Source: an uncultured Candidatus Binatia bacterium (lineage in GTDB: Bacteria > Desulfobacterota > Binatia > UBA9968 > JAJDTQ01). From it: 64,000 nucleotides of DNA. Below, piece by piece: positions 61,361 through 62,410 of the stretch. The position numbers were made by a program, and so were the translations under genes. A model generated the notes under the pieces. That model saw only the letters and a list, made by a program, of their open reading frames with translations, did no database searches and was not told the origin of the DNA. Each line of letters starts with the position of its first letter. Positions within the stretch are counted from its first letter, which is position 1. The stretch spans positions 3,360,001 through 3,424,000 of the forward strand of contig OZ251459.1 of NCBI GenBank assembly GCA_965242525.1, read 5' to 3'.

Positions 61361-62410
61361 CTACCGCGTGGCTACCGCGTGCGCGATGTGCTCTTGTCTT
61401 GGATACAAGGACTTGGACCCCGGTCCGACCCCCACCCAATCCACGGATACGCCGATGGACTGCTCGACCGCTTTGACGAACTCCTCCGCCTTGTCCGTGA
61501 CTCGTTCCTCTTCCCGGCAGCGCCAATCCACGTAATCGAGATGGTTGAGGACCACCCGGCTAGGCGAGTTCGCCTGGATCGCCTGCAGCACGACCTCGGC
61601 GTCGAACCTTGCGACTCGACGGATTCGTCGGGTCACACTGGTCTTCTCCACTATGCGCCCATCGGCACCCGACTCCCGGGCCACGGTGTTCCAGTCCATT
61701 TCCCGCGGAAGCGGGCCGGAGTTTCCCGACACCCGTATGGGGAAGGCCCGGAGCACCAGGATCACATCGTCCACGTCGAGAGGACTCAGGCCGACCTCCG
61801 AAAGGAACCCTGCGGCCGTGGTGTCACGTGACGTCACGTGTGGATAATGATCCGAATGAAGCAGGGACAAACCAAAGCCCTGGGTCCCTTCGACGATCAC
61901 CCGGCGGTTCTGCTGCAAGCAACGCCGCGCCATTTCCCTGACAGGCTGGAGGTAGGGTTGCAACCGTGGGTCGTCCGCGGCCCTCTTCGACCGGCCTTGG
62001 CGCTCTATGCGCCGTATGACCGCGCCGCCGGTACCGGTCAGGGTGGAGCCGATGAGAGATCCCAACCCTGCCTTCCGCTCCCTTTCCCTGTCTTCCTCGG
62101 TAATCACGAAGGCGTTCGGGTCCACGCTCACTCGGTCACATGCGAGGGAGGGGTTGCTCAGTTCCTCCAGGAAGACCTCCACGTCGATGTAGGAGCCGGC
62201 CCCTATGGCGCAGTGGATTCCGGGGATGAGGCAGGCGGTGGGCAGGCAGCGGAAGACGTGGCGTCGCCCGTCTTCGACCACCGTGTGGCCGGAGTTGGGG
62301 CCTCCGGTTCGGATGGCAACGGCCGCTTTTAGCTGTCCGGCCAGGAAGTGGGCGACCTTGCCCTTCCCCTCCGAGCCGTACTGACCGCCGACCACGATGG
62401 AAACCGGCAT
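61361..62410 (-). CDS. Adenylosuccinate-synthetase homologue with PurZ/PurZ0-type signatures
   Basis: VGGQYGSEGKGK (Ser replaces the PurA Asp), GGPNSGHT, IGSTLTG, EGTQG, YPHVTSRD, RAFPIRVSGNSGPL, SVTRRIRRV, NHLD; short 349-aa form. Confidence 0.85.
   Translation of the reverse strand: MPVSIVVGGQYGSEGKGKVAHFLAGQLKAAVAIRTGGPNSGHTVVEDGRRHVFRCLPTACLIPGIHCAIGAGSYIDVEVFLEELSNPSLACDRVSVDPNAFVITEEDRERERKAGLGSLIGSTLTGTGGAVIRRIERQGRSKRAADDPRLQPYLQPVREMARRCLQQNRRVIVEGTQGFGLSLLHSDHYPHVTSRDTTAAGFLSEVGLSPLDVDDVILVLRAFPIRVSGNSGPLPREMDWNTVARESGADGRIVEKTSVTRRIRRVARFDAEVVLQAIQANSPSRVVLNHLDYVDWRCREEERVTDKAEEFVKAVEQSIGVSVDWVGVGPGSKSLYPRQEHIAHAVATR

Follow-up and report, generated by a model that had tools for sequence, protein, structure and literature searches.

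A cellular PurZ-like protein encoded between a nuclease-kinase and a dUTPase-like gene in a Candidatus Binatia bacterium

The locus and its diagnostic residues

A cassette of three genes on the minus strand lies at the end of the window, the whole stretch of 64,000 nucleotides that was analysed. The middle gene (61361..62410) starts with ATG and encodes 349 amino acids, a paralogue of adenylosuccinate synthetase (PF00709, 1.7e-50) that we call the PurZ-like protein and that belongs to the Ser13 clade described below. It is no chance reading frame, because the PF00709 match is joined by at least 120 listed homologues with 54 to 94% identity. The upstream neighbour, a gene for a nuclease-kinase fusion of 696 aa, stops 10 nt short of the PurZ-like gene; its 3' part occupies 62421..64000 and it runs on to position 64511. 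Downstream, a gap of 4 nt separates the PurZ-like gene from the gene for a DCD family dUTPase-like protein of 328 aa (60370..61356; PF22769, 8e-11). The cassette is operon-like and horizontally moving, with the PurZ-like gene in its middle.

The original prediction was that a PurA homologue at this position carries the substitutions of PurZ enzymes, and the three motifs on which it was based are all present in the protein. PurZ is the phage enzyme that opens the route to 2-aminoadenine (Z), a DNA base. The translated ORF begins with MPVSIVVGGQYGSEGKGKV, and its residue 13 is Ser (62372-62374), which takes the place of the catalytic Asp13 of PurA in the P-loop GGQYGSEGKGK (residues 8-18; 62357..62389, minus strand). 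The second motif, FPIRVSGNSGP (residues 223-233; 61712..61744, minus strand), consists of FPIRV at 223-227 and GNSGP at 229-233, and differs from the TRVG-xGP of PurA, a comparison checked on actual sequences, by a Thr-to-Ile change and a 2-residue insertion. The third, LNHLD (residues 288-292; 61535..61549, minus strand), contains NHLD at 289-292 and keeps the Asp that is found in PurA (TKLD) and in PurZ0 (xxMxD) and that is Asn in ATP-using PurZ.

Of the best 120 listed homologues, 108 have Ser at residue 13, 11 have Gly and none has Asp; PIRVxGxSG occurs in 119 of them. In a motif table of 117 rows, the PurZ-like protein has Ser13, PIRV, the GNSG insertion and TxVTxxxRRV in common with PurZ0 and PurZ, and no examined Asp13 PurA shows these features. 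Long bacterial PurAs, including that of this genome, have GDEGKG, an insertion-free (Y/C/I/L)TTRVG, and TKLD or TKID; archaeal short PurAs combine GDEGKG with (F/Y)PTRVG, again with no insertion. Phage PurZ0 proteins have GSEAKG and PIRVAGNSG and keep the Asp, and phage PurZ proteins have GSTGKG, PIRV followed by an insertion, and Asn where Asp stands in PurA and PurZ0. The insertion after PIRV comprises 2 residues in the PurZ-like protein and in PurZ0, and 9 in PurZ of S-2L. The PurZ-like protein also keeps an Arg in the alignment column that we take to be that of E. coli Arg303.

The retained Asp of LNHLD suggests that the donor of the PurZ-like enzyme is GTP. An excerpt of PMC8342488 places Asn or Gln at this position in ATP-using PurZ, and a passage of the NAR 2026 paper gives the ATP and GTP preferences in the opposite order.

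Placement outside canonical PurA

With the PurZ model NF038379, which stands for succino-amino-deoxyadenylate synthase, the PurZ-like protein reaches 233.9 bits, below the cut-off of 300, where PurZ0 controls score 325-365, PurZ controls 384-396 and proteins of other cellular cassettes 229-242 bits. It also stays under the curated cut-offs of all the PurA models, with 200.6 bits for TIGR00184 (cut-off 395.6), 286 bits for NF003295 (cut-off 368) and 162 bits for NF002223 (cut-off 402). The highest of these scores belongs to the archaeal PurA model NF003295, and among solved structures searched by sequence the best match is Pyrococcus horikoshii PurA (194 bits), followed by PurZ0 (7vf6, 158 bits), PurZ (6fm1, 132 bits) and E. 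coli PurA (92 bits).

In a careful tree of 61 rows, the PurZ-like protein, phage PurZ and PurZ0 form one Ser13 clade (ultrafast bootstrap 100, SH-aLRT 98), and every Asp13 PurA falls outside it; this bears out the expectation that the protein would not group with canonical PurA. The Ser13 clade consists of four lineages, whose mutual order this tree does not settle. One of them is a clade of cellular cassette proteins (support 97/94), which contains the window protein; the protein thus lies inside neither phage PurZ nor PurZ0. A quick tree of 96 rows also recovers the Ser13 clade (support 97), and there PurZ0 is nested in the cellular clade at support 87, a nesting that is absent from the careful tree. 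The best identity of any phage protein to the PurZ-like protein is 37%. We read the protein as a cellular relative of phage PurZ and PurZ0; it is a member of a large sister family found in cells. In a scan of genomes, 582 stretches were confirmed, spread over many phyla; this count includes some Asp13 short PurAs.

A separate canonical purA, which the original prediction had called for, is present in the genome (608 bits, C1:1808535-1809791), and purB, the gene for adenylosuccinate lyase, is encoded elsewhere in it. Together with the tree, this upholds the earlier view that the PurZ-like protein is not the housekeeping PurA. A long PurA is also encoded in all eight bacterial cassette genomes checked. 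The distribution of the PurZ-like gene is patchy; it occurs in 6 of 27 other genomes of the same genus and in 2 of 400 other genomes of the same phylum. A putative counter-example, the short PurA that is the sole copy in Elusimicrobiaceae, was rejected, as it has Asp13 and TRVG and matched the second search pattern only. Homologues bear the name 'adenylosuccinate synthase' in their source annotation.

Could the protein be a second, ordinary PurA isozyme, EC 6.3.4.4, of the archaeal type, gained by transfer and converting IMP to adenylosuccinate? The top model, the top solved relative and the names given to homologues all point in this direction. However, the protein lacks Asp13, which 99% of PurAs keep according to the NAR 2026 paper (all 147 phage PurZ proteins reported there have Ser). 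It scores below all PurA cut-offs, and the tree sets it apart from every Asp13 PurA. The presence of a canonical purA and the patchy distribution also speak against an isozyme, as do the Elusimicrobiaceae proteins, short PurAs that adjoin purB, look like housekeeping enzymes and retain Asp13 and TRVG. We regard this explanation as very unlikely, and the label 'adenylosuccinate synthetase' that pipelines give to cellular PurZ-like proteins is probably wrong.

Cassette partners and genomic setting

The nuclease-kinase contains, on the minus strand, an HhH, a DEDD 3'-5' exonuclease (RNase_H_2), a RuvC-like DUF429 domain at about 62997-63581 and, at about 62424-62948, a P-loop kinase resembling CoaE and UPF0200, as defined by Pfam domains. 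The catalytic DEDD, RuvC-like and Walker A motifs are all conserved. Its structural model has a pLDDT of 91.5, and the top fold matches are RuvC resolvases (E of 1.3e-4 and up); the RuvC relationship comes from this fold search, since sequence searches of solved structures gave no match for the whole protein or for the DUF429 profile. The profile of the kinase domain matches dephospho-CoA kinase and UPF0200 at about 2-4e-6, and the domain shares homology with the kinase-like portion of the PADLOC 'dCTPase' (about 1e-4 to 2e-4 for the window protein, 4.5e-11 for the relative L019). In some relatives HHH_8 and PHP domains, as in PolX-type repair enzymes, replace the exonuclease.

These domains are compatible with a system that marks the cell's own DNA. 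The exonuclease and the RuvC-like nuclease would open gaps, Z nucleotides would be supplied locally and host polymerases would fill in, so that excision and resynthesis would place 2-aminoadenine or its N6-succinyl derivative in the DNA as a mark similar to that of restriction-modification. The complete set of exonuclease and RuvC-like catalytic motifs, the HhH and the PolX-type domains of relatives agree with this possibility. So do a PolA gene at the locus L013 and a DnaE gene at the locus L009, each immediately upstream of the cassette there, and PMC8342488 states that cellular polymerases do not discriminate A from Z. However, polymerase neighbours are found at only 2 of 37 loci, the cassette has neither a dATP-removing enzyme nor a dedicated polymerase, and PMC8342488 describes Z in the chromosome as toxic in E. 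coli. Self-marking therefore appears improbable to us.

The DCD-like protein consists of a barrel (about residues 36-175), a membrane helix (about 246-268; 60553-60621, minus strand) and a coiled-coil tail, and its model has a pLDDT of 86. Its best solved match is the dUTPase of Thermococcus pacificus (8y1w), and the archaeal dUTPases 8y1w and 9ln0 align with a TM-score of 0.84 over the target. Remote homology also links it to gp55 of phage Archimedes, which is annotated as a dUTPase (hhalign 80%, E 1.4e-5); NAR 2026 records dutZ in 98 of 98 PurZ0 phages. The glutamate of the deaminases is replaced by Pro (IPLHN), and the family conserves the core motifs VDPGFxGxL and PLHN as in active archaeal dUTPases. 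Since it lacks the deaminase glutamate, the protein is probably a dNTP pyrophosphatase.

Alternatively, this protein might be the effector of a signalling system, in which the PurZ-like enzyme and the kinase make an alarm nucleotide (succino-amino-deoxyadenylate or a phosphorylated form), the dUTPase-fold domain binds it and the membrane helix then damages the membrane, leading to abortive infection. In line with this idea, all 36 DCD-like family members of at least 280 aa have one membrane helix, and the deaminase glutamate is missing. Copies from the same genus share 61% identity in the DCD-like protein versus 81-82% in its partners, and the GC content of its gene is 47.5% versus 64-69% for the partner genes; such divergence is typical of swappable effectors. 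Moreover, the effector-like DUF7002 or AAA ATPase occupies the position of the DCD-like gene in sister clades. On the other hand, the conserved VDPGFxGxL and PLHN fit an enzyme, and the deoxynucleoside kinase frequently found in the cassettes suits a metabolic route better. We know of no precedent and find this explanation unlikely.

The partners of the PurZ-like gene are conserved over many phyla and in one archaeon. In the cassette clade, 33 loci have sufficient flanking sequence. The nuclease-kinase is present at 29 of these and the DCD-like gene at 31, with both at 27; a deoxynucleoside kinase occurs at 14. No deoxynucleoside kinase was found in the window cassette or elsewhere in the genome. 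The cassette also has no HD-type DatZ dATPase, no MazG-type MazZ and no DpoZ or other polymerase, and the dUTPase-fold partner is its sole companion of Z-cluster type.

The composition of the cassette bears on the sugar of the substrate. The ribonucleotide GMP may also be used, because the insertion near the ribose site has a length of only 2 residues and the Arg at the Arg303 column is kept. The enzyme could then convert GMP or another 6-oxopurine ribonucleotide to a 2-aminoadenosine-type compound, perhaps an antimetabolite, in a pathway unrelated to DNA. The best-known member of the CoaE-like kinase family phosphorylates the 3'-OH of a ribose, which would suit such a pathway. We nevertheless give it little credence, as two of the partner families, the deoxynucleoside kinase (at 14 of the 33 loci) and the DCD/dUTPase fold, work on deoxynucleotides and the CoaE-like kinase is fused to DNA nucleases.

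The cassette lies within an island of about 8-9 kb between msrA and a gene for an FAD-oxidoreductase. The distance between these two genes is 11.1 kb here, 10.2 kb in the genome G058 and 2.8 kb in three genomes of the same genus that miss the island; in a fourth, which has its own copy at another place, it is 1.9 kb. HEC-07 (1.4e-174) and a type II DNA methylase adjoin the cassette. In raw counts for 37 loci of relatives, restriction, BREX or Cas1 domains are present in the flanks of at least 10 and transposases in 5, and many flanks consist of housekeeping genes. A sister clade has kinase and PurZ-like domain joined in a single protein, whose gene is located between DUF7002 and a CapP-like peptidase of the M78 family that weakly matches DarG. 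No model of PADLOC-DB 2.0 matches the PurZ-like or the DCD-like protein, and the nuclease-kinase gave weak domain matches (PDC-S44, 6e-7; dCTPase, about 1e-4). The annotated flanks contain no genes for phage structure or phage replication. This absence, phage identities of at most 37%, and partners that are conserved across phyla and differ from the genes of phage Z-clusters make it extremely improbable that the locus is the remnant of a Z-genome prophage, although the nearest characterised relatives are phage enzymes.

Proposed role and relation to known systems

We infer the use of dGMP and GTP from the motifs, the clade and the gene partners, as had originally been predicted, and dGMP is the most likely substrate because of the partner genes. 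GTP would activate the O6 of the guanine nucleotide and aspartate would be added, yielding N6-succino-2-amino-(deoxy)adenylate, which the host PurB could convert to dZMP. The DCD-like protein would provide dNMPs, mirroring DutZ of PurZ0 phages. Since the predicted activities of the cassette all make or use deoxynucleoside monophosphates, it can be seen as a module that channels dG nucleotides into the PurZ-like reaction and would thereby drain dGTP or else synthesize Z nucleotides. Given the island setting, the nuclease domains and the contexts of the sister clade, the cassette in our view most likely protects cells from phages or other mobile DNA. PMC8342488 reports that the S-2L Z-cluster is toxic in E. 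coli and that dZTP is accepted by cellular polymerases, which agrees with a part in such conflicts. We hypothesize that the protein is a GTP-dependent enzyme that joins (d)GMP and aspartate within a mobile, deoxynucleotide-diverting and most likely defensive module, and judge this combined reading, drawn from gene content and homology, slightly better than even (roughly 0.55).

A more far-reaching and quite tentative idea is that cells also make Z nucleotides. On activation, a cassette with an immune or DNA-marking function would degrade DNA and turn the dG pool, via dGMP, into succino-amino-dAMP and dZ nucleotides, starving or poisoning the replication of an invader, and the cellular family would be the stock from which phage Z-clusters, with PurZ0 and a dUTPase-fold enzyme, arose.

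In the published accounts we found, PurZ chemistry is regarded as something that phages invented, apart from a few archaeal exceptions. We found no measured activity for any member of the cellular PurZ-like family and no paper that joins PurZ and DUF429. A search for PurZ with defense system returned no cellular system among the matches listed; one paper on anti-phage defence mentions in passing an adenylosuccinate synthetase operon for modified bases. Our analysis shows that the PurZ signature defines a large cellular family in a conserved cassette (nuclease-kinase, PurZ-like and dUTPase-like genes), which is transferred among genomes and inserts into defence islands. Should the enzyme work on dGMP, bacteria would be able to produce Z or succinyl-Z nucleotides, and one could test how phage Z-genomes originated, with genes passing either from cells to phages or the other way. 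The cassette would then represent a new, immunity-linked manipulation of nucleotide pools, and synthetic biology could draw on it for GTP-dependent enzymes of the Z pathway. Cells, like phages, may rewire guanine deoxynucleotides, probably in their conflicts with phages.

Of the known systems, PurZ0 from actinobacteriophages (Archimedes, a Gordonia phage, PDB 7VF6; Arthrobacter and Microbacterium phages) resembles the window protein in Ser13, PIRV with the 2-residue G-NSG insertion, TxVTxxxRRV, the Asp of the guanine-specificity motif, membership in the Ser13 clade and a dUTPase-fold gene alongside. However, the two share 35-37% identity, PurZ0 passes the NF038379 cut-off and the cellular window protein does not, and the phage partners are DutZ, DmtZ and DUF5664 instead of a nuclease-kinase and a membrane-anchored DCD-like protein; the window cassette has no Z-type polymerase. 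PurZ from Vibrio phage phiVC8 and from cyanophage S-2L (6FM1, 7ODX) belongs to the same superclade and shares Ser13, PIRV and the predicted chemistry of a guanine nucleotide with aspartate; it differs by GSTGKG, a longer insertion and an Asn/Gln donor-base motif that makes it an ATP/dATP user, by companions DatZ and MazZ that are absent from the window cassette, and by an identity of about 30%. The PurA of P. horikoshii (5K7X/2D7U; NF003295) falls into the length class of the window protein (about 340 aa) and gives the top sequence score, but archaeal short PurAs keep Asp13, an insertion-free PTRVG and TGRxRRxGxW, and the window protein is outside their clade (100/98).

The kinase-PurZ-like fusions next to DUF7002 form a sister clade in the Ser13 group and likewise combine a kinase with a PurZ-like domain, whereas their partners are the CapP-like M78 peptidase, DUF7002 and sometimes an AAA ATPase, with no DCD-like gene. 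An adenylosuccinate synthetase is reported in 60% of the neighbourhoods of the DarT-like family Lmac_3114 (PMC12522546). Our guess is that the Pfam family DUF7002 corresponds to Lmac_3114. The anti-phage enzymes that deplete dNTPs, among them the defence dCTP deaminase (PADLOC 'dCTPase'), share with the cassette a homologous kinase-like domain, a deoxynucleotide logic and a location in defence islands. The defence dCTP deaminase reportedly protects cells by removing dNTPs. In those systems the enzyme is a zinc deaminase, whereas the present cassette combines a predicted synthetase and a dUTPase-fold protein with putative nucleases in a multi-gene arrangement.

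Identity and phylogenetic placement of the PurZ-like protein

The gene at 61361..62410 (minus strand, ATG start) encodes a 349-aa protein whose N-terminus, MPVSIVVGGQYGSEGKGKV, has Ser at residue 13, where E. coli PurA carries its catalytic Asp13. FPIRV lies at residues 223-227, GNSGP at 229-233 and NHLD at 289-292. The ORF matches the coordinates of the original prediction exactly, and the predicted motifs are present. The protein is a real PurA-family member (Pfam PF00709, E 1.7e-50), and it passes none of the curated models scored, reaching 286 bits vs a cut-off of 368 for NF003295 (archaeal-type PurA), 233.9 vs 300 for NF038379 (PurZ) and 200.6 vs 395.6 for TIGR00184. 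Compared by sequence with solved structures, it scores highest with P. horikoshii PurA (194 bits), then with PurZ0 7VF6 (158), PurZ 6FM1 (132), S-2L PurZ (113) and PurA of E. coli (92), and its top identity to any phage record is 37%.

Among 117 proteins taken from the fetched loci, all long, archaeal short and Elusimicrobia short PurAs have GDEGKG, TRVG or SRVG without an insertion, and G-x-(T/V)-(T/S)-x-R-x-R-R. All cellular relatives of the flagged protein, phage PurZ0 and phage PurZ have PIRV, an insertion after RV, and TxVTxxxRR; position 13 is Ser throughout this set except for Gly in two loci (L015 and L018). The best 120 database homologues have Ser (108), Gly (11) or an unreadable residue (1) at this position and Asp in no case, and 119 of them contain PIRVxGxSG.

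A quick tree of 96 rows (the 117 minus 21 near-duplicate outgroups, with the fragments L065, L067 and L077 left out) united all Ser13 proteins in one clade (SH-aLRT 97). The same clade had a support of 100/98 in a careful tree of 61 hand-chosen rows (LG+C20, rooted on long PurA), and with PurA, PurZ and PurZ0 references included, the flagged protein fell inside it and not within canonical PurA, in line with the original prediction. The clade contains four well-supported lineages, the branching order of which is not settled by the careful tree: phage PurZ0 (100/100), phage PurZ together with a protein of Bacillus phage vB_BpsS-140 (100/98), kinase-fused cellular proteins (100/100), and a cellular cassette clade that includes the window's protein (97/94). 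The PurZ model (cut-off 300) scored PurZ0 at 325-365 bits and PurZ at 384-396 bits, whereas the cellular proteins scored 229-242 bits, which sets the cellular family apart from curated PurZ. The vB_BpsS-140 PurA homologue (L117:3950-5071), which branches basally in the PurZ lineage, combines Ser13 with a long insertion and stays under both cut-offs (PurZ 211 bits, archaeal PurA 234 bits). Taken together, motifs and trees place the predicted synthetase in the PurZ clade, with motifs of the PurZ0 type.

The window's genome (4.23 Mb, 98.96% complete) encodes a separate canonical purA at C1:1808535-1809791 (PF00709 608 bits, GDEGKG and TTRVG), and purB is also encoded elsewhere in it. The flagged gene is thus a second copy and, as originally argued, not the housekeeping PurA; a rival explanation for such a copy is a plain isozyme. 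A long canonical PurA (575-611 bits) is present in all eight bacterial genomes checked that bear a relative of the flagged gene; of the archaeal carriers, an Archaeoglobaceae genome has its own archaeal PurA and a Thermoplasmata genome a long PurA. Elusimicrobium was considered as a sole-copy counter-example and rejected: its protein, which entered the set through the second search pattern only, has Asp13 and (I/V)(T/S)RVG without insertion and adjoins an adenylosuccinate lyase gene. The only PurA of Elusimicrobiaceae is of this short, archaeal-length Asp13 type beside purB (L034, L037-L040, L043-L047, L049, L055 and others), and it is the sister of the entire Ser13 clade in the careful tree (97/95).

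Which phosphate donor might the enzyme use? Tong et al. 2023, in the abstract of the PurZ0 paper, are said to report that PurZ0 uses GTP. The Asp of LNHLD in the flagged protein aligns with that of PurA TKLD and PurZ0 xxMxD, a position occupied by Asn in ATP-using PurZ. According to the structural passage of PMC8342488, N305, Q308 and the G335 backbone of S-2L PurZ hydrogen-bond the adenine 6-amino group, base stacking comes from F306 and P336, and a polarity clash of Q308 (N297 in phiVC8) with the guanine 2-amino group is expected. These contacts and the retained Asp support GTP as the likely donor. A bioRxiv passage agrees in sense with GTP use by PurZ0. Section 24 of PMC12884076 (NAR 2026), as printed, has PurZ0 preferring ATP and PurZ preferring GTP, contrary to the use of ATP or dATP by S-2L and phiVC8 PurZ in the passage of PMC8342488; the order in the printed sentence is probably swapped.

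Cassette partners and their conservation

Three genes share the minus strand here: a gap of 10 nt separates the PurZ-like gene from the ORF upstream of it, and one of 4 nt from the ORF downstream. The upstream nuclease-kinase ORF runs past the window end, and the full gene in the genome encodes 696 aa with Pfam matches to RNase_H_2 (1e-23), DUF429, P-loop kinases and, weakly, HhH. Across an alignment of 20 homologues, conservation extends to the DEDD exonuclease motifs (FLDiETT, VTFNG..FD, YN..D), the DUF429 acidic residues (GIDL, SIDSP, ESYPG, HDELDA) and the Walker A motif. The top fold matches of the DUF429 domain model (pLDDT 91.5) are RuvC resolvases (E from 1.3e-4, probability 1.0, TM 0.57-0.63 over the target). 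For the kinase part, profile matches are to dephospho-CoA kinase and archaeal AdkA-like/UPF0200 proteins (2-4e-6), as well as to the kinase-like part of the PADLOC 'dCTPase'.

The downstream ORF encodes a 328-aa protein with a DCD domain (8e-11; model pLDDT 86), the best solved relatives of which, by sequence and fold, are Thermococcus pacificus dUTPase 8Y1W and 'dUTPase P45' 9LN0. In dCTP deaminases the Glu of TLE is catalytic, consistent with the PDB entry titles for E138 and E145 variants, and this family has IPLHN instead. A remote homologue of the protein is Archimedes gp55 (hhalign 80%, E 1.4e-5), which carries a dUTPase annotation and whose gene lies 1.4 kb downstream of that for PurZ0. 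A single strongly hydrophobic helix follows the barrel in each of the 36 family members that are 280 aa or longer; a rival explanation for the cassette is a signalling nucleotide sensed by this membrane protein. Just past the window end, 102 nt upstream of the cassette, lies a 572-aa ORF (L084:4614-6332, minus strand, on the extended locus) for which neither Pfam nor PADLOC gave a match and the 80 related loci held no homologue.

A scan of genome contigs matched at least 592 stretches, at least 582 of which were confirmed; the best 80 loci comprise 45 cassette-type, 17 kinase-fused and 18 Elusimicrobia Asp13 loci. A tblastn search located the DCD-like protein in 40 of these 80, and in 50 the nuclease-kinase protein, whole or as its kinase part. 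Of the cassette-type loci, 33 have flanks of at least 2.2 kb (upstream) and 1.8 kb (downstream); in these, the nuclease-kinase gene occurs 29 times, the DCD-like gene 31 times and both 27 times; a deoxynucleoside kinase (PF01712, 1e-20 to 1e-25) follows the DCD-like gene in 14, and an uncharacterised 257-aa protein is encoded in 8. The deoxynucleoside kinase is absent from the window's cassette, and none was found in the window's genome. In some relatives HHH_8 and PHP domains replace the DEDD exonuclease. In two unrelated genomes the gene immediately upstream of the cassette, and on its strand, encodes PolA (L013:16-2877) in one and a DnaE-type polymerase (L009:64-2787) in the other. As judged from these sequences, the cassette is shown to be operon-like and to combine active-looking DNA nucleases, a P-loop kinase, an apparently deaminase-dead dUTPase-fold protein and often a deoxynucleoside kinase.

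Accessory distribution and island setting

The distance between msrA and an FAD-oxidoreductase gene is ~11.1 kb in the window and 10.2 kb in G058, a genome of the same genus with an 88% identical copy of the flagged gene. It is 2.8 kb in three congeneric genomes that lack the gene, and 1.9 kb in G049, which has its 55% identical copy at another place. Hence, the cassette lies in an inserted island of ~8-9 kb. Copies (E <=1e-40) are present in 6 of 27 other same-genus genomes (identities 88, 81, 56, 55, 54 and 36%, the last a kinase fusion) and in 2 of 400 other sampled same-phylum genomes. The distribution is accessory and island-borne.

GC drops from ~0.69 to 0.54-0.57 over 56-62 kb of the window, and within the operon (60370-64000, L084:2421-4511) it falls from 68.9% (nuclease-kinase) through 64.2% (PurZ-like) to 47.5% (DCD-like), with canonical purA at 69.0%. 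The DCD-like gene also diverges faster between same-genus copies (61% vs 81-82% for its partners), and this, with the steep GC gradient within one operon, suggests module swapping. Host phyla are scrambled in the cassette clade of the careful tree, which indicates spread by horizontal transfer.

Convergent to the cassette is a full-length HEC-07 candidate defence gene (58490-60142, plus strand; PADLOC 1.4e-174), and next to it a type II D12-class N6-adenine DNA methylase gene (56858-58018, plus strand; PADLOC 5e-109) with no obvious restriction partner beside it. HEC-07 appears to be absent from the G058 locus, since the methylase gene there ends ~240 bp from the DCD-like gene. Adenine-methylase genes are frequent near relatives' cassettes (L005, L017, L035; RlmJ-like in L008, L021, L029, L052). 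The flanks of 37 relatives' loci, surveyed through 135 of the 166 qualifying ORFs, hold restriction-modification, BREX (BrxC), Cas1 or related domains at 10 or more loci and transposases or integrases at 5, and housekeeping genes form many of the other flanks; a prophage remnant is a rival explanation of the locus. ARAGORN also predicts in the window a tRNA-Asn with the unusual anticodon ATT (40266-40347, minus strand).

Possible function and relation to known systems

We hypothesize that the dUTPase-like protein would convert dNTPs to dNMPs in the manner of DutZ, which in PurZ0 phages yields monophosphates from dATP and dGTP according to PMC12884076 (NAR 2026), and that the nucleases and the deoxynucleoside kinase would likewise supply dNMP pools. 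The PurZ-like enzyme would then join dGMP and aspartate, with GTP, to form succino-amino-dAMP, which may proceed to dZTP through host PurB and kinases. The S-2L Z-cluster is described in PMC8342488 as toxic in E. coli, with Z replacing 12.1% of plasmid and 3.9% of chromosomal adenine; therefore, an inducible cassette could abort phage replication, by dG drain or by Z production. Rival explanations for this chemistry are self-marking of DNA, and reactions on ribonucleotides in place of the proposed deoxynucleotides.

Proteins of a sister clade (~530-560 aa; L036, L042, L058, L066, L069, L071-L083) consist of an N-terminal kinase joined to the PurZ-like domain. The neighbours encode an M78 peptidase-like protein (PADLOC CapP 1.9e-19) with a weakly DarG-like C-terminus (3e-4), DUF7002 (5e-57) and sometimes an IetA-like AAA ATPase and a PHP-kinase protein, an arrangement that looks like a DarTG-style conflict system. 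According to a survey (PMC12522546), 60% of the neighbourhoods of the DarT-like family Lmac_3114 contain adenylosuccinate synthetase; this family is, at a guess, DUF7002. An adenylosuccinate-synthetase operon 'for synthesis of modified bases', with a link to PUA-like defence proteins, receives brief mention in a 2026 preprint. Our literature search found no paper describing the cellular cassette or calling these proteins PurZ-like. PurZ and PurZ0 themselves are already known, as phage enzymes, and four archaeal Ser/Gly sequences are placed basal to both in PMC12884076 (NAR 2026).
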